Positions 2,284 to 44,224 of a stretch of DNA of 64,000 nucleotides are shown here, one piece after another; the stretch's first letter is position 1, and each line of letters begins with the position of its first letter. The stretch lies in NCBI RefSeq assembly GCF_054482595.1, contig NZ_CM137008.1; one strand, written 5' to 3'. A program made the position numbers and the translations under genes. The notes beneath the pieces are model-generated. The model was not told the DNA's origin, ran no database searches, and was given only the letters and a program-made list of their open reading frames with translations.

Positions 2284-3524
2284 TGAAAATAAAACAGGCT
2301 CTGTTCACCGCTGGCTACTCCTCATTCTATTTCGATGACCAGCAGGCGATAAAAAACGGAGCGGGTCATGACGGCTTTTTTTATACTGGGGAGCCGGTAA
2401 CACAGGGGTTTAACACCGTACGTCAGGCCGGGGAGTGCGTATCGGTACAGTTGATTCTGGAAAACGGCGCGGTCGCTGTAGGTGACTGTGCTGCCGTACA
2501 GTATTCTGGGGCAGGTGGTCGCGATCCACTGTTCCTCGCAGAGCACTTTATTCCGTTCCTCAACGACCATATCAAGCCATTACTGGTAGGCCGCGATGTG
2601 GATGCTTTCCTGCCGAATGCCCGTTTCTTCGACAAATTGCGTATTGACGGCAACTTGCTGCATACCGCCGTGCGCTACGGATTATCACAGGCGCTGCTTG
2701 ATGCTACCGCGCTGGCAACCGGCCGTCTGAAAACTGAAGTGGTCTGTGATGAATGGCAGTTGCCACGCGTGGCGGAATCCATTCCATTATTTGGTCAGAG
2801 CGGCGACGATCGATATATCGCCGTCGATAAGATGATCCTTAAAGGCATCGACGTGCTGCCCCATGCGCTGATTAATAACGTCGAAGAGAAGCTGGGCTTT
2901 AAAGGTGAAAAACTGCGCGAATATGTCCGCTGGTTGTCGGATCGCATTCTAAGCAAGCGCACCAGCGCACGCTACCACCCTACCCTGCACATCGATGTAT
3001 ACGGCACTATCGGTCTGATCTTCGATATGGATACGCTTCGCTGTGCGCAATACATCGCCAGCCTGGAAAAAGAAGCGCAAGGCCTGCCGCTCTACATTGA
3101 AGGGCCGGTCGATGCCGGTAACAAGCCCGATCAAATTCGCCTGCTGACCGCGATTACCAAAGAGCTGACGCGCCTCGGTTCCGGCGTGAAAATTGTGGCC
3201 GATGAATGGTGTAACACCTACCAGGATATTGTTGATTTCACTGATGCCGCCAGTTGTCACATGGTGCAAATCAAAACCCCGGATCTGGGCAGTATTCACA
3301 ACATCGTCGATGCGGTTCTTTACTGCAATAGCCACAGCATGGAAGCGTACCAGGGCGGCACCTGCAATGAAACTGATGTCAGTGCCCGCACCTGTGTCCA
3401 CGTCGCCCTTGCCGCTCGCCCCATGCGTATGCTGGTAAAACCAGGGATGGGCTTTGACGAAGGCCTCGATATCGTCTTCAACGAAATGAATCGTACTATC
3501 GCGCTGTTGCAGGCTAAGGATTAA
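2283..3524 (+). CDS. mal: 3-methylaspartate ammonia-lyase (methylaspartase)
   Basis: 413 aa, N-terminus MKIKQALFTAGYSSFYFDDQQAIKNGAGHDGF... matches enterobacterial methylaspartase (Citrobacter-type) as I recall it; enolase-superfamily length; 1-nt overlap with glmE. Confidence 0.9.
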   Translation: MKIKQALFTAGYSSFYFDDQQAIKNGAGHDGFFYTGEPVTQGFNTVRQAGECVSVQLILENGAVAVGDCAAVQYSGAGGRDPLFLAEHFIPFLNDHIKPLLVGRDVDAFLPNARFFDKLRIDGNLLHTAVRYGLSQALLDATALATGRLKTEVVCDEWQLPRVAESIPLFGQSGDDRYIAVDKMILKGIDVLPHALINNVEEKLGFKGEKLREYVRWLSDRILSKRTSARYHPTLHIDVYGTIGLIFDMDTLRCAQYIASLEKEAQGLPLYIEGPVDAGNKPDQIRLLTAITKELTRLGSGVKIVADEWCNTYQDIVDFTDAASCHMVQIKTPDLGSIHNIVDAVLYCNSHSMEAYQGGTCNETDVSARTCVHVALAARPMRMLVKPGMGFDEGLDIVFNEMNRTIALLQAKD

Positions 3525-3527
3525 CAA

Positions 3528-4898
3528 ATGGCTCGTTCTTTTAAAGTCTTATCGCCAACGGCAATCCTCGGGTATGGATTCCCGGAAGAGAGCTTCCGCA
3601 AAGCGATGGCAGAATCGCCCGATCTGATCGCCGTTGATGCAGGCTCTTCCGATCCAGGCCCCCACTACCTCGGGGCAGGCAAACCGTTTACCGATCGCGC
3701 AGGGGTCAAGCGCGATCTGCGCTATATGATCACCGCAGGCGTGCAAAATAATATACCGGTGGTGATCGGAACGGCTGGCGGTTCTGGTGCCGCACCACAC
3801 CTGGAGTGGTGCCGAGAAATAATTCATGAGATTGCCCGGGAAGAGCACCTCTCGTTCTCGATGGCGTTGATCCCGGCAGACGTTGACAAAGCCATCGTCC
3901 ACCAGGCGCTGGATAACGGCAAAATCACGGCGCTGGATTTTGTCCCGCCGTTAACCCACGACGCGATTGACGAAAGTACGTATATCGTCGCGCAAATGGG
4001 CATCGAACCCTTCCAGCGGGCGCTGAAAGAACGCGCGCAAGTGGTGCTGGGCGGGCGCGCTTACGACCCGGCCTGCTTTGCTGCGCTCCCGATCATGCAA
4101 GGCTTTGATGAAGGTCTGGCGCTGCATTGTGGGAAAATCCTTGAATGCGCGGCAATCGCCGCAACGCCCGGCTCAGGCTCTGACTGTGCGATGGGCATCA
4201 TTGATGACAACGGCTTTACGCTGAAGACATTTAATCCGAAGCGTAAATTTACCGAAACGTCAGCAGCTGCACACACACTGTATGAGAAATCCGATCCCTA
4301 CTTCCTGCCAGGACCTGGCGGCGTGTTGAACCTGAAAGGCTGCACATTTAAAGCAGTCAATGACGGCGAAGTCTACGTCAGCGGTTCTAAGCATGAAGAA
4401 ACGCCGTATGCCCTGAAACTGGAAGGTGCACGACGGGTGGGCTTCCGCTGTCTGACCATCGCCGGAACGCGCGACCCGATTATGATCGCCGGGATCGATA
4501 AAATCATCGATGAAGTCAAAACCAGCGTTTCGCGTAACCTGTCGCTCGACGATGACAGCATTCGCATCAATTTCCACCTGTACGGCAAAAACGGGGTGAT
4601 GGGAGACCATGAACCGATGCAAACTGCCGGGCATGAGCTGGGGATTGTCCTTGATGTAGTTGCACCGACCCAGGAAATTGCCAACAGCGTTTGCTCGCTG
4701 GTGCGCTCTACCATGCTGCACTACGGCTATGAAAACCGCATCGCTACCGCAGGTAATCTGGCGTTCCCGTTCTCCCCTTCTGATATCCAGGGCGGGCCGG
4801 TATACGAATTTTCCATATATCACCTGATTGAAGCCAACGACGCTCTGCGTTTTGATTTCCATATTGAACAGGTGACGCCAGAAGGAGTTCAGGCATGA
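3528..4898 (+). CDS. DUF1446 family protein (AtuA-like), function unknown
   Basis: 456 aa; motifs resembling the AtuA/DUF1446 family (GGRAYDPACFAALP..., GKILECAA); starts 4 nt after the mal stop with no promoter space. Family assignment is from memory, not a search. Confidence 0.6.
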   Translation: MARSFKVLSPTAILGYGFPEESFRKAMAESPDLIAVDAGSSDPGPHYLGAGKPFTDRAGVKRDLRYMITAGVQNNIPVVIGTAGGSGAAPHLEWCREIIHEIAREEHLSFSMALIPADVDKAIVHQALDNGKITALDFVPPLTHDAIDESTYIVAQMGIEPFQRALKERAQVVLGGRAYDPACFAALPIMQGFDEGLALHCGKILECAAIAATPGSGSDCAMGIIDDNGFTLKTFNPKRKFTETSAAAHTLYEKSDPYFLPGPGGVLNLKGCTFKAVNDGEVYVSGSKHEETPYALKLEGARRVGFRCLTIAGTRDPIMIAGIDKIIDEVKTSVSRNLSLDDDSIRINFHLYGKNGVMGDHEPMQTAGHELGIVLDVVAPTQEIANSVCSLVRSTMLHYGYENRIATAGNLAFPFSPSDIQGGPVYEFSIYHLIEANDALRFDFHIEQVTPEGVQA

Positions 4899-5212
4899 AA
4901 CAGTCAATTGTCTCACTGGCGCAAGTCATTCGTTCGAAAAATGCCGGACCTTACGAACTGGTTTTAGATATTTTATTTAAAACGAAAGAAAACTATGAGC
5001 GAGTTAAATCATCAGGGCAATTAACCCCAGAACTGATTGCGCGCTTATATCATGTTGAACCTGACTTTATTCATCGTATTGTCTGGTTTGATCCTTCTAA
5101 CGCAGTAAAAATCGTCATGCCACGAGATATTATCTCCGGGAATGTAGGTGACAATGATGTCTATGGTGCACAGCAACATGCACCTTTATTAAATATGAGT
5201 TTCGATTTGTAA
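4895..5212 (+). CDS. DUF4387-like small protein, usual partner of DUF1446/AtuA-like proteins
   Basis: 105 aa; start ATG overlaps the stop of the upstream DUF1446 gene (ATGA), implying translational coupling; motif IRSKNAGPYELVLDI... resembles DUF4387 as recalled. Confidence 0.55.
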   Translation: MKQSIVSLAQVIRSKNAGPYELVLDILFKTKENYERVKSSGQLTPELIARLYHVEPDFIHRIVWFDPSNAVKIVMPRDIISGNVGDNDVYGAQQHAPLLNMSFDL

Positions 5213-5295
5213 AAATCCGAATACTTTTAGCCAACTGACATCCCGTCACTTATTGCAGTTCAACACTTCAGCTATTTGTAAGGTTGTAATAGCAG

Positions 5296-5327
5296 GTAGA
5301 TGCCTGAATCTCTATTCAGGCATCTAC
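5296..5327 (+). terminator. Perfect 14-bp-stem hairpin (gtagatgcctgaat-ctct-attcaggcatctac) followed by a U-rich tract; putative terminator/attenuator
   Basis: Read directly from the sequence between the DUF4387 stop (5212) and the transporter start (5373); arms are exact reverse complements. Confidence 0.5.
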
Positions 5328-5372
5328 TTCTCCTGATTCTGATTTATCGCCGTGCACCTGATGGAGGAAAAA

Positions 5373-6653
5373 ATGAAGACAATAAGTTTAACCACGATGA
5401 TTCTTTTGGCGCTGGTACTTGGAATGATTATCGGCGTAGTGCTCAATAACACTGCTTCACCGGAAACCGCAAAACTCTATGCGCAAGAAATATCGATATT
5501 CACGACGATTTTCTTACGACTGATAAAAATGATTATCGCTCCGTTAGTGGTCTCTACCCTGGTGGTAGGTATTGCTAAAATGGGCGATGCCAAAGCCCTT
5601 GGTCGTATTTTTTCTAAAACACTCTTTTTATTTATTTGCGCCTCATTGCTGTCAATTGCCTTAGGCTTGATAACGGTAAATTTCTTCATGCCAGGTACAG
5701 GAATTAATTTTGTTGCACACGGTGCCGAAACCACCGGAGTGGTCGCGGCAGAACCCTTTACGCTAAAAGTATTTATTTCGCATGCTTTCCCCACCAGCAT
5801 TGTCGATGCCATGGCGCACAATGAAATTTTGCAAATCGTGGTGTTCTCAATTTTCCTCGGCTGTAGCCTGACGGCGATTGGCGAGAAAGGCAGCGCCATC
5901 GTTCACGCCTTAGATTCGCTGGCACATGCCATGTTAAAGCTGACTGGCTACGTCATGCTCTTCGCTCCCCTGACCGTATTCGCTGCTATTTCAGCATTGA
6001 TTGCTGAACGAGGACTGGCAGTTATGGTGAGCGCCGGGATCTTTATGGGTGAATTTTATTTCACCATGTTATTACTTTGGGTGCTGCTTATCGGTCTGGC
6101 CATCGTTTATGTCGGCCCCTGCATCAGACGCCTGACCCGCGCCCTTTCGGAACCCGCCCTGCTGGCATTTACCACATCCAGTTCTGAAGCGGCTTTTCCG
6201 GGAACGCTTGAAAAACTGGAGCAATTTGGCGTTTCCCCCAAAATTGCCAGCTTTGTCTTACCCATTGGCTACTCATTTAATCTCGTTGGATCAATGGCCT
6301 ACTGCTCCTTCGCTACAGTTTTCATCGCCCAGGCCTGCAATATCCATTTATCCATCGGTGAACAAATCACCATGCTGTTGATCCTGATGTTGACCTCGAA
6401 AGGAATGGCTGGCGTACCACGCGCCTCAATGGTGGTTATCGCCGCCACGCTCAACCAGTTCAATATTCCGGAAGCGGGGCTGATCTTGCTGATGGGCGTT
6501 GATCCGTTCCTTGATATGGGGCGTTCCGCGACAAACGTCATGAGCAACGCAATGGGCGCTGCGATGGTGAGTCGGTGGGAAGGCGAACATTTCGGCGAGG
6601 GCTGTCGGGGTAAAGCATTAAAACCCAATGAATCGAACGTTGCTCTGCCCTGA
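5373..6653 (+). CDS. Dicarboxylate/amino acid:cation symporter (DAACS family; GltP/DctA-like), probable glutamate or C4/C5-dicarboxylate uptake
   Basis: Hydrophobic multi-TM translation typical of the GltP/DctA family. I chose ATG 5373 (MKTISL...) because GGAGG at 5363-5367 sits 5 nt upstream; the listed ORF starts at GTG 5352. Confidence 0.75.
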   Translation: MKTISLTTMILLALVLGMIIGVVLNNTASPETAKLYAQEISIFTTIFLRLIKMIIAPLVVSTLVVGIAKMGDAKALGRIFSKTLFLFICASLLSIALGLITVNFFMPGTGINFVAHGAETTGVVAAEPFTLKVFISHAFPTSIVDAMAHNEILQIVVFSIFLGCSLTAIGEKGSAIVHALDSLAHAMLKLTGYVMLFAPLTVFAAISALIAERGLAVMVSAGIFMGEFYFTMLLLWVLLIGLAIVYVGPCIRRLTRALSEPALLAFTTSSSEAAFPGTLEKLEQFGVSPKIASFVLPIGYSFNLVGSMAYCSFATVFIAQACNIHLSIGEQITMLLILMLTSKGMAGVPRASMVVIAATLNQFNIPEAGLILLMGVDPFLDMGRSATNVMSNAMGAAMVSRWEGEHFGEGCRGKALKPNESNVALP

Positions 6654-36942: not shown

Positions 36943-37200
36943 TCAATTATATTTTATAATTTGTTGTATTGCTGACTTTATATTGCCAATGACATCCTCA
37001 TCATTAAATTCATTTAATATATTTTTTAGAATAGGATGTAGTTTAATATCACCTAAAATACCTGCCAAAATAATAACTTCATCAAAAATTATGTTTTTTT
37101 GCAGTTCATAAATTATAGCAGTTATAACACGATTATCTTTTCTTTCTGCCAGTCCGCTTATAGCTTCAATTCTGGCACAATCATTCTTATCTGTCAGCAT
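36943..37200 (-). CDS. Hypothetical 85-aa ORF with HEAT/PBS-lyase-like repeat character; possibly a gene fragment
   Basis: AT-rich ORF just downstream of the H-rpt transposase gene; repeat-like segments (ARIEAISGLAERKDNRVITAIIYELQ). Weak support. Confidence 0.3.
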   Translation of the reverse strand: MLTDKNDCARIEAISGLAERKDNRVITAIIYELQKNIIFDEVIILAGILGDIKLHPILKNILNEFNDEDVIGNIKSAIQQIIKYN

Positions 37201-37212
37201 TCCAGGGCAAGA

Positions 37213-38349
37213 TTACGAAAGCCCGCTCCCCGCAAGGACTGACGCCAGATAGTTTCTGTCCATGGCTGCTTTTCGCATCTTACGTCTTAACCCTGCCTTG
37301 AATACCTTATCATTCGTCAAAATATTAATAGCAATGTGCCGTATCCCTGAAAATAATTCTGCTGCATTTCCTCTTCTTATTTTGCAGTCGTCTTCATTCA
37401 TTACCACGTCCAGACGCCAGTGCAGCTTATTCTCCACGTGCCAGTGGTTTCGGATTGCTGTGGCGAACTTCTCTGCGGTTAAATCAGCAGAACTGATATA
37501 ATATCTGACCGTCATTTCTGGCTCTTTCTTTTGTTCTGCTATTATGGACCGAAAGGAGACTGCCACGCATAATTTCTTCAGCCCTTTCCATTCAAACGTG
37601 AAATCAATAAGTTCATCAGGGACATCGCAAACATTATGAAGACGGATCTCTTCTCTGCCGTGACTCTTTTCACTCATTGCGTAACTGTCATGCTCTGGAT
37701 TATTTAATTCTTTCAGTGGAAATTTTTCCTCAAAGGCTTTATTAAGCCGCCCCTGATTTCCTTTTACAGCGAATAAATAATCACCGCCCTGTTTTTGTAT
37801 CTTCTCTGCGATATCTTTCTGGCAACCCATCGCATCAGTTGTGATAATTTTTCCTTTAATATCCAGCATGTTAAGAAGTTCAGGGATAGCTGTAATCTCA
37901 TTAGATTTCTCATCCGTCTTGATCTGTCCGATGACCAGACTGTGCATTGTTGAGAACGCACTAATGACATGAATCGCTCCCCTGCGGCGACTCTTGTCAT
38001 AAGAGTGCCGGAGCGTTTTTCCATCAATTGCAATGACGTCTTTATCATCTGAAGAATGGCAGTCACGCATCCAGTTAATAAAGCACTCGTGAAATTTTGC
38101 AGGACTGATACAGGATACAACTCTGGCAATGGTATCGTGAACAGGAATACCATTTTCAAAATCACCATATTGCTTCAAAAAATCGAGATGTGTTTCCCCA
38201 AAATCCTCTATATCTTCCCAGCCTTCTGCACCAGAAATAACGGCACAAATAGTCAACAGTAGAATATCCGATAATTTATGCTCCACTTTCCAGGCTTGTC
38301 TGTAATCAGGGATAATAGAAATATGTTCCATCAATTTTTTAAGTTCCAT
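37213..38349 (-). mobile_element. H-rpt (H repeat-associated) element of an Rhs locus: intact 378-aa ISAs1-family transposase-like ORF
   Basis: 378 aa, [64 protein letters not shown]... matches the YhhI/H-rpt protein family; element ends not determined. Confidence 0.85.
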
Positions 38350-38987
38350 TTTGTTCTCCTTAATTATGTAAGGAGTATTTGATCATGTATAAGCAATAAA
38401 AAACAGCTTCAGGTAATGAGGAATATCTCAATTTTTAAACATAAAATGCGAATTATTTAGTACAAAAAGTGAACTTCTGATGATCTTTCCCTGTGATTGC
38501 TTCCCGTTTCCCGATACGGCGGCGCGGGGAGTCATAAAGGTAAGAAATTTCCAGCAGTACAGCGTCCTATTGTTCACGGCGGTAATGCACCAACCAGTAT
38601 TGGCTATCGTAGTGATAACCGTGTAACCTGCCGCCGCATCGCGTATCTAATGTTCATTCTTTTCCATAAACCGTCCGTACACATTGTGATAGTAAAAATA
38701 CAATACATCTTCGCTGATGCGGTTATTCTGCTGCATGTGGGGAGCGCCGAATACTGCTCCCGGTATGGCCAGTAATTACTATTTAGTACGACGTTAGGGG
38801 GAGTCACTTAATCTCACAGATACTTCAAGTAACAGATGAAAATCGCTCCTGAAATGAAAAAAGAAATTTTTTTGAATGTGTTCCTGTCAAATCAAGTGGT
38901 TTTTTCGTCGATATGTAGAGTCATATTGTACACAAAATTGTTACGAAACACACCTTGGTAAAATATTTGAATCGACTGTACAGTGGA

Positions 38988-39290
38988 TTATTTTGTGTGT
39001 ATTACATTCAACACTTGCCCATCTTTTTTCGCTATTAGTATTGTAAAATTTCCTCCTAAAGTCTTCGGTTGTTTTCCCTCGATTTTCCAACAATTATTGT
39101 CATCTGTAATACTATATGGTTTCTGAAATTCTGCTTTTTCTTTCCCGTATACATATTTAATGTAAACATATGATAATTCCAAAGCCATTTCACGACTATT
39201 TACTAAAATTTCCACTGGATTTTCTTTTCCAAATACTTGTTATGATATTGTAAACAATATCATAATAAGTAATATTAGTGAGTTTCTCAT
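38988..39290 (-). pseudogene. Small secreted-protein ORF interrupted by an in-frame TAA at codon 17 (plus-strand 39240-39242)
   Basis: From ATG (39288-39290, minus strand) the frame reads MRNSLILLIMILFTIS-TAA-QVFGKENPVEILVNSREMALELSYVYIKYVYGKEKAEFQK...HTK. A signal-peptide-like N-terminus continues in the same frame across a single stop. Confidence 0.5.
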
Positions 39291-39458
39291 GTTCTACACC
39301 TATCGAATCTCAAAAGCTGTGGGTAAAACATTACATTCAGAATATATGATATTCTTACCATCGGAATCCATTTTTCCAAATCGACCTTCTGGTGTACCTG
39401 GATATCCATTAAGAACATGTTTTTCCGAATGGTTAATTTATTCTCTCAGGAAGATGTT

Positions 39459-40028
39459 TTATTTTTCTTCACTACGAAGCAGTTCATGCTGTATTTTTGT
39501 TAAACATTCGTAAGACTCATCTTTGTTCGGGAGATGTGCTGTCATTCGAGCATAAGTTGGCTTCTCATCTTTAAAATATTTAACCATGATTGAATTATCA
39601 AGGACTGCCAACAACTGAGCTGGATCACTGCTCTTTTTTTGATAGATACCCGCTCTTATATAACTTCTAAACCGATCGCCGAGAAACGCCGTTTTTTCTG
39701 CTGTATTTATCAACTCCTGCAACGTTCCTTTGATGGCATGATTTTCATTAAGGCGTAGTGACCCGACACGAATTAAGAGTCTCGCCCCGCTTGATGTGAA
39801 TTTATTATTTTTACATGTACCCAGTTCTGTTTGCCAATAATACTCACCGATGTCCTCATTCTGATACCATCTCCACATGGCTTTATTATTTAAGACAGGA
39901 AACGCGGAAAAAATAGTACCCTTAGCGAAAATAGTAAAACAATCATGATCTTTAGCTTGTATTTCGCAATCAGCTATAACACCAAAATTAACAAATATCA
40001 TCAGCAAAAAGAACAAAACTCTTTTCAT
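39459..40028 (-). CDS. Putative Rhs immunity protein (periplasmic; signal peptide)
   Basis: 189 aa, [19 protein letters not shown]|DCEIQ...; its ATG overlaps the rhs stop (ATGA); AT-rich like the Rhs C-terminal tip. It may correspond to K-12 ybfC, but this was not verified. Confidence 0.65.
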
Positions 40029-43000
40029 TTTCTTATTCCTCTCGATGTTCTCTGTTTCATTTTAGCTAAAATTTCACCCAAATCATCTATCCCTGCTGTT
40101 GCTGGCCCATCGGGTTTATTAATGTCTGGGAATAAATAGGGTTCTGCACAAGTATATCCTGGTGGTAATTGAGTTGTTGGCCAATTTGTCTGTGGCAGGT
40201 AATCACTTGCTGTCTTTGTATCCATCCCTGGATACTGGGGATCATCCTGTGGCGTACAAGTCAGATTTGGTTTTACCCACTTCCTGCAATACAGTGTGTA
40301 GTCGTAAGGGCTTAATGCTCTGAAGAATGTTTTGAAAACATTAGGCGCACTACTGGCCTGGTCAATAGGATATGGCAGTCTTAATTGTTTCGCTATGTCT
40401 GGCAATTTACTTGGATCGGGCGTAGGCGGTTTGTTGGGTCTCGCTCCATATCCGCCATTATTTAAGTGTCCATATTTTGATGCCAGTCCCATTGAATCTA
40501 TATACTGAACCGGATTCAACGGATACTGATAAAAATTCCATCCCCCCTTCAGTCCAATCGGATCCTGAGTGATATACCTCCCCTGCAGCGGGTCATAATA
40601 GCGGTGGCGGTTGTAATACAGGCCGGACTCCTCATCATACTGCTGACCCGGCAGGCGGATGAGCTGCTGCAGCTGGTGCGGGTTCTCTTCATTCAGCTGG
40701 TTACCCCATTCATCGTATTCTGCGTACCACGCTGTTGTCCCTTCCGTGCTGATAAGCGCCAGCGGCAGGCCGCGATGGTCGCAGTGGTACAGGTGGATTT
40801 TTCGCGCCGGCGTGTACACCGGGTCCATCTGGTTTTGCATCTGCTTCACCGTCAGGCCGCACGATGCCAGCCAGCGGCGGCTTTCCTCACTCACCCGGTC
40901 AGCCAGGATTTCACTTTCCAGCCGGTCGAGCATCTGCACCAGCACCGGCGGGAACACCACACTGCCACCGTCTTCACCGCCGGACTGCTGAAGGGCATCC
41001 GCCAGGCTGCGGCGCTGCGTTCTGGCCAGTTCACCGGTGGCAGTTTCAACTCTGATGAGTGGTGTGAAGCTCCCCGGCTGATAAATCGTCTGGATGCGGG
41101 TTCTGTCGTTCTGTATCGTGGTCAGGCGGTCGCCATCCCAGCCGTACCAGGTCACTTGCGGTTTCCGTGACAGCGACATCCAGCCCGTCAGGTCCCGTTC
41201 ACGTCGCCATACCCGTTTTGCCACCCTGCGGCCCAGCGGGTCGTAAAGATAGCGGCTTTCGACCAGCGGCTCTGCATATTGTGTCCGCGTGTAGTGCACC
41301 AGCCGGTGCTGACTGTCGTAATGGTACCGGTGGGTGCGCTCATCATCCGTGCGGATAACCCCTTCCGGGATGAGGTCGGTTTTCTCTGTCAGTCTGCCGT
41401 GACGGTCATACCGGTAAAGATAGTGCGCGTCACGGGCGATACGGTTATCCGGCCACATGCTGAGGGTGCTGTCCGGGTGCAGCTCCGGGTCGGGCAGGCG
41501 GTTACCTGCCGGGTCCGTGGCATACGGGATGCGGATATCAAGGTTCGCTGCCGTGGTGTGAACGCCGGTCAGCCTGCCGGAGTCGCTGTAGCTGTAACTC
41601 CGGGTATGGCGCGGGCTGCTGATGCGGATGAGTTCGCCGTTGTCGTTCCAGGTGTAATCGCGGTCAGACTGCAGGCTGTTCAGGTGCTGGCTCTGTAACT
41701 GCCCGGCAGGGGTATAAGCGGTGGTGAGTTCATAATGGCCGAAGCTGCGCAGCGTTTCCCGGTGCAGGCGGTCGCGGGTGAAATCCACCAGCGGTGTGTC
41801 GCCGAGCTTCATGCCTGACAGCCAGCCGCTGCCGTAGGTCAGCCATTCCACGGCGGGCAGGCTGTCCGGTATACAGCGGTTCGCCAGCCCCTGCGCGTTG
41901 TAAGCGTGTCTGGTCTCATGCTGCCAGAGCAGTGCTTCCGTCTGCGGGTGATGCACCGTCTGACGCTCACCGGTCAGGCGGCCTTTCTCATCATACCTGT
42001 AATGCACCGCTACCCGGTGCCCTTCGCTGATATGGCTGATGTCTGTCAGCCAGCCACGTTCGTCATACCGCCACCGCTCTGCGGTTTCACCCTTCACGGT
42101 GCGGTGCGTGAGGCGGTCTGCTTCGTCATAGTGCCAGTGGGTGACCAGACCCTCATCCTCGCTGCGGATAAGTTTGCCGGTCAGGTCGTGGTGATAATGC
42201 TGTGTGCGGCCGTCAAAGCCGGTTTCCTGTATCAGCCGGTCGAGTACATCGTAACGGAAGGTGGTGTGGCTGCCGTTTTCACTGGTCAGGCGGATGACCC
42301 GTCCGGCAGCATCGTATTCCATACTGCGCGTCAGACCGCCCTGCGTGGTACGGATGGCCTTTCCCCACGCATCGTACTGTGTCCCGTTTCTGCTGCCGTC
42401 CGGAGCAATGACGGCGGTCAGGTCACCGGCGGCGTTGTATTCATACCGCATTTCATGGCCCTGCATGTCTTTCACGGCAATTAACCGTCCACGGCTGTCG
42501 TATGCGCGGTACTGACTCAGCCCTTCCTCGCGGTGCACCGCCGTCATCTGCCCGAAACGGTCATGGTCATAACGGGTTACATAACCGGAACAGTCGGTGA
42601 AGCTCAGCAACTGGCCGTAACGGCTCCACGTCATGGTTTTCCGGCTGCCGGTGGCATCGTCCGTTGCGCAGGGTAAGTCACTGTGTGGATTATCATAACG
42701 GTAGCGGGTGATATCGCCGTCAGGGGCGGTTTCCTGAATCAGACGGCCGGATTCATCATATTCCCGGCGCATTTCCAGCCCGTCAGGCCCGGTGGCTGAC
42801 GTTAACTGGCTGTGGTGGTTATAGTAAAATGCCGATGCCCTGCCATCCGGTGTGGTGATGCGCGTGATGAGTCCCGTCACCACATCCGGGCTGTATTCTG
42901 TTGTCCGGCCTGCGGCATCCGTCTGTGCCTTAAGCCTGCCCACCGCATCAAACTGACTCTGCGTGACGCTGCCGTCCGCGTGTTCCTTTTTCACCACCCG

Positions 43001-44224
43001 CTTCAGCCCGCCTTCGCCCTGCGTGTGCAGCACTTCACGGCGGTCCAGGCTGTCGGTGATGGTGATGCGGTTTTGCTCATAACAGTAGGTGTAGCTTAAG
43101 CCCGCCGGGTTAAGCTGCTCTGTCACCCGCCCGTCGCTGTCGTAACGGTAACGGATTTCCGGTCGGCCCGTGTGACGGTGCGCCACCATCCGGCCCCGGT
43201 ATTTATCATCGTAAGTAAAGCTGCGCACCTGTGTATTGCTGCGGTCATACACCGCCGCCAGTTCGCCGCGTGGCGTCCAGCCATAGCGCACCAGCGGCGC
43301 GGCTGGCAGGTTGTCCGGGTATTCCGGGTCGTGCGTCAGCCACACGGCAGACAGACGGATGCCGTTGTCCCGGCCATATTCGGTGTAACCCGGCAGGGTA
43401 TCAGGAAAAGCGGACGGTTCCGTCCCGCCGGAAGAGGCCTGCTGCCGGGCTTCTTCTGCCCGCTGCGCCTGCGTGGTCAGTACCAGCCGGAAGTGACGCC
43501 CGGCACCATCCGTCACGCCGGTGATTTCGCCGCTGAATTCACCGGCGGCTTCGCGGTGGAACGTCTGTGTGCGCCCGAAGCGGTCCACCAGCCCGGTCAG
43601 TACCCGGTACGGCGGCAGCGGCGCAGGCAGCACCTCATCCGCTTCCGGCACCCGCTCACACCAGCCGAGCAGCCACCACGGCCCCTGCGGACTGTTTGTC
43701 GCCAGATAACGATGCGGACTTAAGCGGAGTTCTTCCGGCAGCGCCTGCCAGAGTGCGGCCAGCCGGTGACCTTCATCCAGTTTCGCCACGCCGCCGCGCA
43801 CCAGCCACAGTGACTCGCTGCGGCTGTAACCGTCCTCACCGGGAAACAGGTGCTCAAAATACAGGCTTCTGCCGCCGTTATCACTGAGTATCAGTGTGTT
43901 ATCGCGCAGCTGTAAGCGGATATCCGCAGGCATTTTCCAGCCGGGGCCGAGGCTCCCCACCGGCGCGGGCGTTTTTGTCCGGTAACTGCTGTAGGTGCGG
44001 GAGAGAATGAACGGCAGCGGGGCGGGCAGGGCGATGTCGGTTTCACCGGGAAGGACCTTTGCACCGAGCAGCGGATTGACCGGATGGCCGGACGTCACCC
44101 CGCCGGGGCACACCGAACAGGCCACGCCGGTGGGGGCACCAATACGTACCCCGGCTGAACCCTGGACAATGCTACCGCCATACTGCGTCATGTCGCCCTG
44201 ACGCGCCGCCGGTTTTCCGCTCAT
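40025..44224 (-). CDS. rhsC: Rhs family protein (RhsC-type): PAAR-like N-terminus, YD-repeat shell, variable C-terminal toxin tip
   Basis: 1399 aa, [42 protein letters not shown]...; many YD/RYxYD repeats; core ends near ...[16 protein letters not shown] (40484-40498), followed by a 152-aa AT-rich tip (40028-40483). Confidence 0.93.

Follow-up and report, generated by a model that had tools for sequence, protein, structure and literature searches.

An orphan immunity gene in the rhsC locus of Escherichia coli, a member of the Imm-NTF2-2 family, appears to be decaying, and we consider it probable that its export signal was lost to a stop codon written by a quasi-palindrome template switch. The gene is found in a 64,000-nucleotide stretch of contig NZ_CM137008.1 (RefSeq assembly GCF_054482595.1), referred to here as the window. 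A small N-terminal segment of signal-peptide type is interrupted by TAA at codon 17, the tip of the cognate toxin survives only as a 45-codon stump, and the interrupted allele recurs unchanged in 15 complete genomes. Here, we describe the gene and its neighbors, the segment that was broken, the mutational event that broke it, and the fate of the gene across the species.

An orphan immunity gene behind a toxin stump

The features of the region are as follows; all genes are on the minus strand.

36943–37200, minus strand: C-terminal fragment of a YibA-like HEAT-repeat protein, 85 aa (NCBIfam PRK09687)
37213–38349, minus strand: transposase gene of ISEc1 (ISAs1 family, "H-repeat"), which bounds the orphan region (ORF list)
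38988–39290, minus strand: disrupted orphan immunity gene, Imm-NTF2-2 family, 100 codons plus stop, broken at codon 17
38988–39215, minus strand: residual 75-codon ORF from the GTG at 39215, with the whole NTF2-type domain and no signal segment
39228–39290, minus strand: signal-peptide-type segment, codons 1–21 of the intact allele, cut after codon 16 by the stop
39234–39271, no strand assigned: quasi-palindrome with arms 39254–39271 and 39234–39251 (gene nucleotides 20–57) and 2 nt between them
39237–39239, minus strand: codon 18, CAA (ancestral TCA, Ser)
39240–39242, minus strand: nonsense codon 17, TAA in 15 complete genomes (ancestral CAC, His, from alignments and the outgroup paralogue)
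39297–39301, minus strand: Shine–Dalgarno-like motif AGGTG, 6 nt 5′ of the ATG at 39290, overlapping the TAG of the stump
39300–39437, minus strand: 3′ stump of the cognate DUF4329/Tox-JAB-2 toxin, 45 codons plus TAG, INHSEKHVLNGYPGTPEGRFGKMDSDGKNIIYSECNVLPTAFEIR*
39459–40028, minus strand: ybfC, presumed immunity gene of the main Rhs toxin (ORF list; RefSeq "protein YbfC")
40025–44224, minus strand: main Rhs core protein of the rhsC locus, 1399 aa (ORF list and annotation)

Read from the minus-strand ATG at 39290–39288, codons 1–16 encode MRNSLILLIMILFTIS; the TAA at 39242–39240 follows, and the same frame then continues for 83 codons (QVFGKENPVEILV...NVIHTK) to a TAA at 38990–38988. A preliminary description of this DNA had given the same frame, with ends at 39290 and 38988, and these coordinates are exact on re-reading; it was also right that one in-frame nonsense codon interrupts the gene. 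With the stop masked, residues 35–100 match Pfam family PF15631 (Imm-NTF2-2) with an E-value of 1.7e-20 and 73.4 bits, against a gathering cut-off of 26 bits, and the match covers profile positions 1–68 of 68. An NCBIfam scan of the repaired protein matched no family. In the alignment, the ORF 3′ of the stop keeps all conserved family residues (A36, Y48, G49, P58, W68, G72, G79, G80, I86, K88, G91, H98 and the terminal K), including the typical H-x-K end. The conserved Y and W of Imm-NTF2-2 were noted by Zhang et al. 2012 (PMC3482391), who assigned the family as the immunity protein of Tox-JAB-2 (= DUF4329) toxins. An intact 100-aa relative, P0005, is 85% identical.

Given the PF15631 match, together with uninterrupted 100-codon orthologues and paralogues that keep the N-terminal segment, the two halves around the stop belong to one gene. 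Comparison with orthologues thus settles a question that the preliminary description had posed: there is one gene here, not two independent ones, and the upstream signal segment is conserved.

When the repaired protein was modeled with AlphaFold2 (mean pLDDT 90.7), residues 2–18 formed a helix, followed by a linker and by two helices packed on a four-stranded sheet. A Foldseek search of this model against the PDB gave no significant match, the best hits being PepSY-like lipoproteins with an E-value of 0.066, and on that basis no Imm-NTF2-2 member has a solved structure. The search thus gave no confirmation of the "NTF2 fold" label. The window gene resembles the family, to which the YbbC/YhhH-like proteins of E. 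coli belong, in size (~100 aa), in its N-terminal signal-type segment, in the conserved Y/W/GG/H-x-K residues, and in its position directly 3′ of a DUF4329 toxin end. It differs in the nonsense codon at residue 17 and in that no more than a 45-codon stump is left of the toxin.

The stump frame ends 10 nt before the ATG at 39290. It aligns to the C-terminus of the full Rhs-DUF4329 protein of an active module (L006), whose last 45 toxin codons read ...INYSKKHVLNGYLGTPEGRFGKMDFDGKNIIYSECNVLPTTFEIR* and whose C-terminal region is PF14220 (DUF4329; E-value 7e-33). In L006 and L007, the intact immunity paralogue P0005 lies 10 nt 3′ of the full Rhs-DUF4329 protein. The identity of the stump rests on the L006 alignment, the 45 aa being too short to match in a Pfam scan. 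Similarity to the toxin begins only 45 codons before its stop, with no homology to the Rhs core; the 21 nt that separate this stretch from the stop of ybfC do not resemble the toxin. The stump also has no start codon and falls 3′ of the H[ST]H catalytic motif (HTH in L006). Because it lies 3′ of this motif and lacks the Rhs core, the stump cannot encode a toxin, and the unit is therefore an orphan immunity gene plus a toxin remnant. This bears out the earlier suggestion of an orphan immunity gene in an Rhs element: an Imm-NTF2-2 gene sits 10 nt past a DUF4329/Tox-JAB-2 stump. The overlap of the AGGTG motif with the stump stop codon is typical of a toxin/immunity junction. The gene is what remains of a toxin/immunity module, of whose Rhs toxin tip (DUF4329/Tox-JAB-2) no more than the final 45 codons survive.

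On the minus strand, the genes run in the order ybfA, Rhs, ybfC, stump, immunity ORF, ISEc1, YibA-like fragment, ybgA, phrB. Rhs orphan arrays are well known from the Rhs and CDI literature, an example being ybfO-ybfC in the E. coli K-12 rhsC locus. The window module resembles such orphan modules in being sited 3′ of the main rhs gene and its immunity gene, in combining a toxin 3′ fragment with an immunity gene, and in lying near ISAs1/H-repeat elements. It differs from them in two ways: the toxin fragment lacks any similarity to the Rhs core, having no PxxxxDPxGL region, and the immunity gene is itself degenerate. Without Rhs core homology, the stump cannot return onto the main rhs gene by homologous recombination.

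In K-12 and BL21, the tip found on the main Rhs protein of the window forms an orphan together with ybfC (ybfO-ybfC) behind another main tip (rhsC-ybfB); evidently, the orphan tip moved onto the main Rhs gene in the window lineage. The PF03527 RHS domain of the main Rhs protein stops ~220 residues before the C-terminus, and these last ~220 residues (window 40028–40700) contain no Pfam domain, only a sub-threshold OCRE match; a Pfam scan of YbfC likewise found no family. On the other side, the 85-aa ORF corresponds to the last ~82 residues of a YibA-like protein (PRK09687 positions 202–283 of 285, E-value 1e-25). We compared the ISEc1 region using the annotations of XH990, BL21, O157 and EC21Z-144. 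EC21Z-144 and similar genomes have a full yibA at the ISEc1 site, together with DUF6258, pentapeptide-repeat and second NTF2-immunity pseudogenes. These extra orphan genes in relatives imply that the window copy of ISEc1 marks a deletion of several orphan genes. A promoter and terminator scan of positions 38700–39700 found nothing over shuffled expectation.

The signal-type N-terminus and a possible site of action

Intact alleles start with MRNSLILLIMILFTISHSVFG, followed by KEN. By inspection, the segment divides into an n-region (MRN), an h-region (SLILLIMILFTI) and a c-region (SHSVFG, with SHS or VFG as the putative end of the signal); the cleavage site is thus a prediction. Sec-type signals were taken to have a positively charged n-region, an h-region of 10–15 residues, and small residues at −3 and −1, and inspection finds a charged n-region, a hydrophobic h-region and small residues at −3/−1. 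In the AlphaFold2 model, the N-terminal helix (residues 2–18) stands apart from the domain. Relatives keep the segment with conservative replacements (MRNSFISLILILFTISHSTFG, MKNSFISLALILFAISHSVFG and MNKLIFLLVSMLLVMSHFALS), as in P0005, P0006 and P0029.

A family-wide HMMER search returned 303 representatives at E ≤ 1e-3. Among the 103 representatives listed that are 85–170 aa long and start with Met (range P0029–P0170), 86 (~83%) have a signal-type hydrophobic N-terminal 10-mer, 13 of these with a lipobox-like motif, while 17 of the 103 have no signal segment. The maximum 10-residue Kyte–Doolittle window of the intact allele is comparable to that of the 86 signal-bearing members, which include YbbC-like and YhhH-like proteins of E. 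coli. Uninterrupted 100-codon alleles occur at the same locus in Res13-Sevr-PER07-33 and ES5, and intact forms also occur in the active module (L006–L009) and in more distant relatives (P0006 and P0029). The preliminary description had proposed a signal-bearing protein of ~100 aa, and both the intact alleles and the 86 of 103 representatives with such a segment point to the same conclusion. Judged from this distribution, the full-length, signal-bearing form is the ancestral one.

The intact gene would thus encode a 100-aa pre-protein consisting of a Sec-type signal segment and a small α+β domain. By analogy with the family, the exported protein would neutralize its cognate toxin by binding it. 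Published in silico studies label DUF4329 an RNase (PMC7216683, PMC10469887). The frequency of signal peptides among the immunity proteins (~83%) would place the target outside the cytoplasm, and DUF4329/Tox-JAB-2 toxins may act in the periplasm rather than as cytoplasmic RNases. YbfC also has a signal-peptide-type N-terminus (window 39960–40028), which likewise suggests that the main Rhs toxin of the locus acts in the periplasm.

A quasi-palindrome and the origin of the stop codon

Across the 101 nt spanning the stop, 15 independent complete genomes of E. coli show 100% identity; they come from humans, poultry, pigs, deer and water in various countries. The preliminary description had raised the possibility of a sequencing error at 39240–39242, and these 15 concordant genomes rule it out. 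The allele also appears in a protein-database entry (P0028) translated from a 104-kb NCBI contig, and related alleles have two consecutive TAA codons at this site. Of the stop codons, UAA is the one at which E. coli terminates translation most efficiently. That the TAA reflects a sequencing or assembly error, or that it is read through or recoded, is thus vanishingly unlikely.

All other lineages, as well as the outgroup paralogue of L006, have CAC TCA (His17-Ser18) at codons 17–18. The sense codon is hence CAC, not the TAT or CAA that had been guessed. Moreover, the stop did not arise by the single change that had been assumed: four of five consecutive bases are substituted in the window TAA CAA relative to the intact CAC TCA (39242 C>T, 39240 C>A, 39239 T>C and 39238 C>A), a change pointing to a multi-base, templated event, while the rest of the gene is ~98–100% identical between the window and other alleles in the alignment. 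A third version of these codons, TAA TAA, occurs in two complete genomes (TUM13936 and EC42405) and one metagenome contig.

Codons 17–18 lie in the 3′ arm of the quasi-palindrome. In the intact allele, 15 of the 18 arm positions are complementary, and the predicted DNA hairpin has a minimum free energy (MFE) of −4.9 kcal/mol. In the TAA TAA allele, complementarity is complete (18 of 18; MFE −13.0 kcal/mol), and the window allele is intermediate (17 of 18; MFE −9.8 kcal/mol). The outgroup L006 has the same 8-bp core stem. CAC TCA and TAA TAA differ at three positions, precisely the three at which the 3′ arm is mismatched, and each changed base is the exact complement of its counterpart in the unchanged 5′ arm. 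The window allele consists of these three templated changes plus one non-templated T>C at 39239. Position 39239 is T in both the intact and the TAA TAA alleles, and the T>C in the window is best explained by a subsequent point mutation, which converted the second stop to CAA.

This pattern carries the signature of a quasi-palindrome template switch, which would have made the stop in one multi-base step. During replication, the nascent strand would have folded back and copied the 5′ arm of the imperfect 18-nt inverted repeat; the three mismatched bases of the 3′ arm would have been replaced at once, converting CAC TCA to TAA TAA and creating a perfect palindrome. In the window lineage, the second stop would later have become CAA through the T>C change. 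The rhsC locus is, we assume from the K-12 map, co-oriented with replication; since the sense 3′ arm is the one that was converted, an intramolecular switch on the leading strand would be the simplest form of the event.

The alternative is that the clustered change arose from independent point mutations or from gene conversion. At least one ordinary substitution is needed in any case, the window allele being a 17/18 palindrome, and Rhs loci are recombination hotspots. There is also a conversion-like patch nearby. From position 26001 to its end, the window differs from XH990 (NZ_CP019359) at 13 of 38,000 bases; 8 of these 13 differences fall within 172 nt of the Rhs core gene (window 41977–42148), a cluster suggestive of gene conversion by another rhs paralogue. 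Against this alternative, three substitutions fall on exactly the three mismatches and each is complementary; by our own calculation, which is conditional on three substitutions within the 18-nt arm, the chance of matching the positions is ~1/816 and that of matching the bases is 1/27. Partial sets of the three changes are absent from all 845 genomes that carry the locus, in which the only alleles between the window and intact types are those of TUM13936 and EC42405, both with all three changes. The sequence flanking the clustered change is otherwise identical to the intact alleles, and nothing in the 64-kb window nearly matches the mutated arm except the complement of the other arm. No alternative template for the window-specific C at 39239 was found in the window either. 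These observations make an origin other than a template switch very improbable.

Template-switch mutagenesis at quasi-palindromes is established in E. coli, including with the lacZ QP5/QP6 reporters (PMC7202029). The window allele resembles known cases in that an imperfect repeat was perfected by a simultaneous, multi-base change of one arm. It differs from the reporters in being a natural polymorphism of wild genomes rather than a selected event, and from known quasi-palindrome mutations in creating a double stop in a signal peptide, in the later point change, and in its presence on two haplotypes. Mutations of this class were reportedly associated with quasi-palindromes by Ripley in 1982, and a quasi-palindrome hotspot in E. 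coli thyA is said to have been described by Viswanathan et al. in 2000 and by Dutra and Lovett in 2006.

Within ~230 nt on each side, the window allele has the haplotype of Res13 and ES5 (G at −153, T at +1 and T at +230), whereas the TAA TAA alleles have a BL21-type haplotype (A at −153, C at +1, i.e., the ACG start, and G at +230). The presence of the TAA alleles on two haplotypes calls for one of two histories, two firings of the hotspot or the exchange of a tract shorter than ~230 nt. The predicted intermediate, with an ATG start and TAA TAA, was not found in the complete genomes or in the metagenome scan, which gave a single match, of the TUM13936 haplotype with an ACG start. It is conceivable, if rather doubtful, that the site is a recurrent hotspot, with at least two independent silencings of export, and that signal loss was favored by selection. 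In other lineages, the signal has also been lost through an ACG start and through TAA at codon 28. If selection were at work, either the exported orphan immunity protein would be costly or a cytoplasmic NTF2-type domain would have another use.

Decay across the species and the residual ORF

The locus was found in 845 of 5426 complete E. coli genomes, with the following alleles.

Ancestral N-terminus: 12 genomes, 7 of them 100% identical over all 303 nt
TTA>TAA at codon 28: about 310 genomes, O157:H7 and relatives
ATG>ACG at the start codon: about 164 genomes (by subtraction), including B/BL21, C, ATCC 8739 and others
Open N-terminus with a 2-bp deletion, HTK* to HKIIHCSDDSNILPRCVS*: about 342 genomes
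Window-type TAA CAA: 15 genomes
ACG start plus TAA TAA: 2 genomes

The 2-bp deletion changes the conserved H-x-K end, and frameshifts within the domain are found in protein-database entries P0007, P0009, P0010, P0018, P0025 and P0027. As for the nearest known cognate toxin, megablast, sensitive to ~85% identity, found toxin-domain DNA of the L006 type in 0 of the 5426 complete genomes. Many independent lesions and the lack of a common cognate toxin are consistent with an orphan gene that is decaying, as it appears, under relaxed selection. Lineages other than that of the window would have gained their different lesions in the same way, and loss of function would probably have been neutral. Comparison of the orphan gene with its active-module paralogue gives a dN/dS of 0.33 (0.24 in the mature part), in keeping with an ancestral full-length form; comparisons within the set of orphan alleles are uninformative, with only 0–2 synonymous substitutions. 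In the O157:H7 strain 7.1_Anguil (L002), ybfC is frameshifted (2432–3002) and the ISAs1 transposase has an internal stop (4589–5725); the orphan region as a whole is decaying in the O157:H7 lineage.

With TAA at codon 17, a full-length exported protein would be impossible. The preliminary description had pointed out that the downstream part could be translated from an internal GTG, and RefSeq indeed annotates this 75-aa remainder: in the near-identical XH990 genome, PGAP names the residual ORF "NTF2 fold immunity protein" (WP_000404862.1). Re-initiation at the GTG, 8 codons past the stop, is possible in principle. Any 75-aa product, having no signal segment, would stay in the cytoplasm.

A different reading is that the gene is not inactivated at all, the 75-aa product from the GTG at 39215, or one made by re-initiation, being functional in the cytoplasm, with an N-terminus that is dispensable or whose loss is favored. 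The annotation of WP_000404862.1 is alike in five genomes (XH990, TUM13936, EC42405, Res13 and ES5), but PGAP also picks this GTG where the longer ORF is open. In EC21Z-144 and WP9-S17-ESBL-11 (L004/L005, 3246–3518), as well as in L012/L013, it uses the internal GTG despite an open upstream ATG. Since the GTG is chosen even where the 100-codon ORF is open, the annotation is no evidence as to the true start. Signals for translation initiation do not favor the GTG either: it has a weak GGA motif (−3.3 kcal/mol), and the AGGTG pairing of the ATG at 39290 is modest (−3.7 kcal/mol), so that the comparison of Shine–Dalgarno strength is uninformative, with both values within the background of random 20-mers (5th percentile, −6.2). 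The intact set of conserved residues past the stop and the 17 of 103 representatives without a signal segment would suit a functional cytoplasmic domain; set against this, the signal-bearing form is ancestral, accompanies the active toxin, and predominates in the family. Lastly, the ACG start, TAA at codon 17 and TAA at codon 28 are independent lesions that remove only the N-terminus and together account for ~58% of carriers. However, the clustering of three of the four major lesions in the first 28 codons is not significant by our calculation (p ~0.07 under a uniform expectation), and the frameshifted entries show that lesions also occur inside the domain. Taken together, a functional cytoplasmic remnant is unlikely, and decay of an orphan gene through loss of its export signal is the preferred explanation.

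The gene family, the DUF4329/Tox-JAB-2 pairing, orphan modules in Rhs loci, rearrangements linked to ISAs1 and mutagenesis at quasi-palindromes have all been described before. The allele is what sets this case apart, a natural template switch having placed two stop codons in tandem within a signal peptide. As gene decay the event is commonplace, although its mutational cause is unusually clear, and the allele offers a clean example from nature of a quasi-palindrome template switch creating a tandem stop codon. Such events mimic clusters of single-nucleotide polymorphisms (SNPs) and can mislead SNP-based phylogenies and estimates of dN/dS. The finding also bears on annotation. The 75-aa remnant is annotated as an ordinary protein in hundreds of genomes, its pseudogene status unflagged, and because RefSeq does so also in genomes with an open 100-codon frame, the authentic start and the signal peptide of the family are systematically missed in E. 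coli genomes. For the biology of the family, signal peptides across Imm-NTF2-2 argue that DUF4329/Tox-JAB-2 toxins may act outside the cytoplasm, against the common RNase label.
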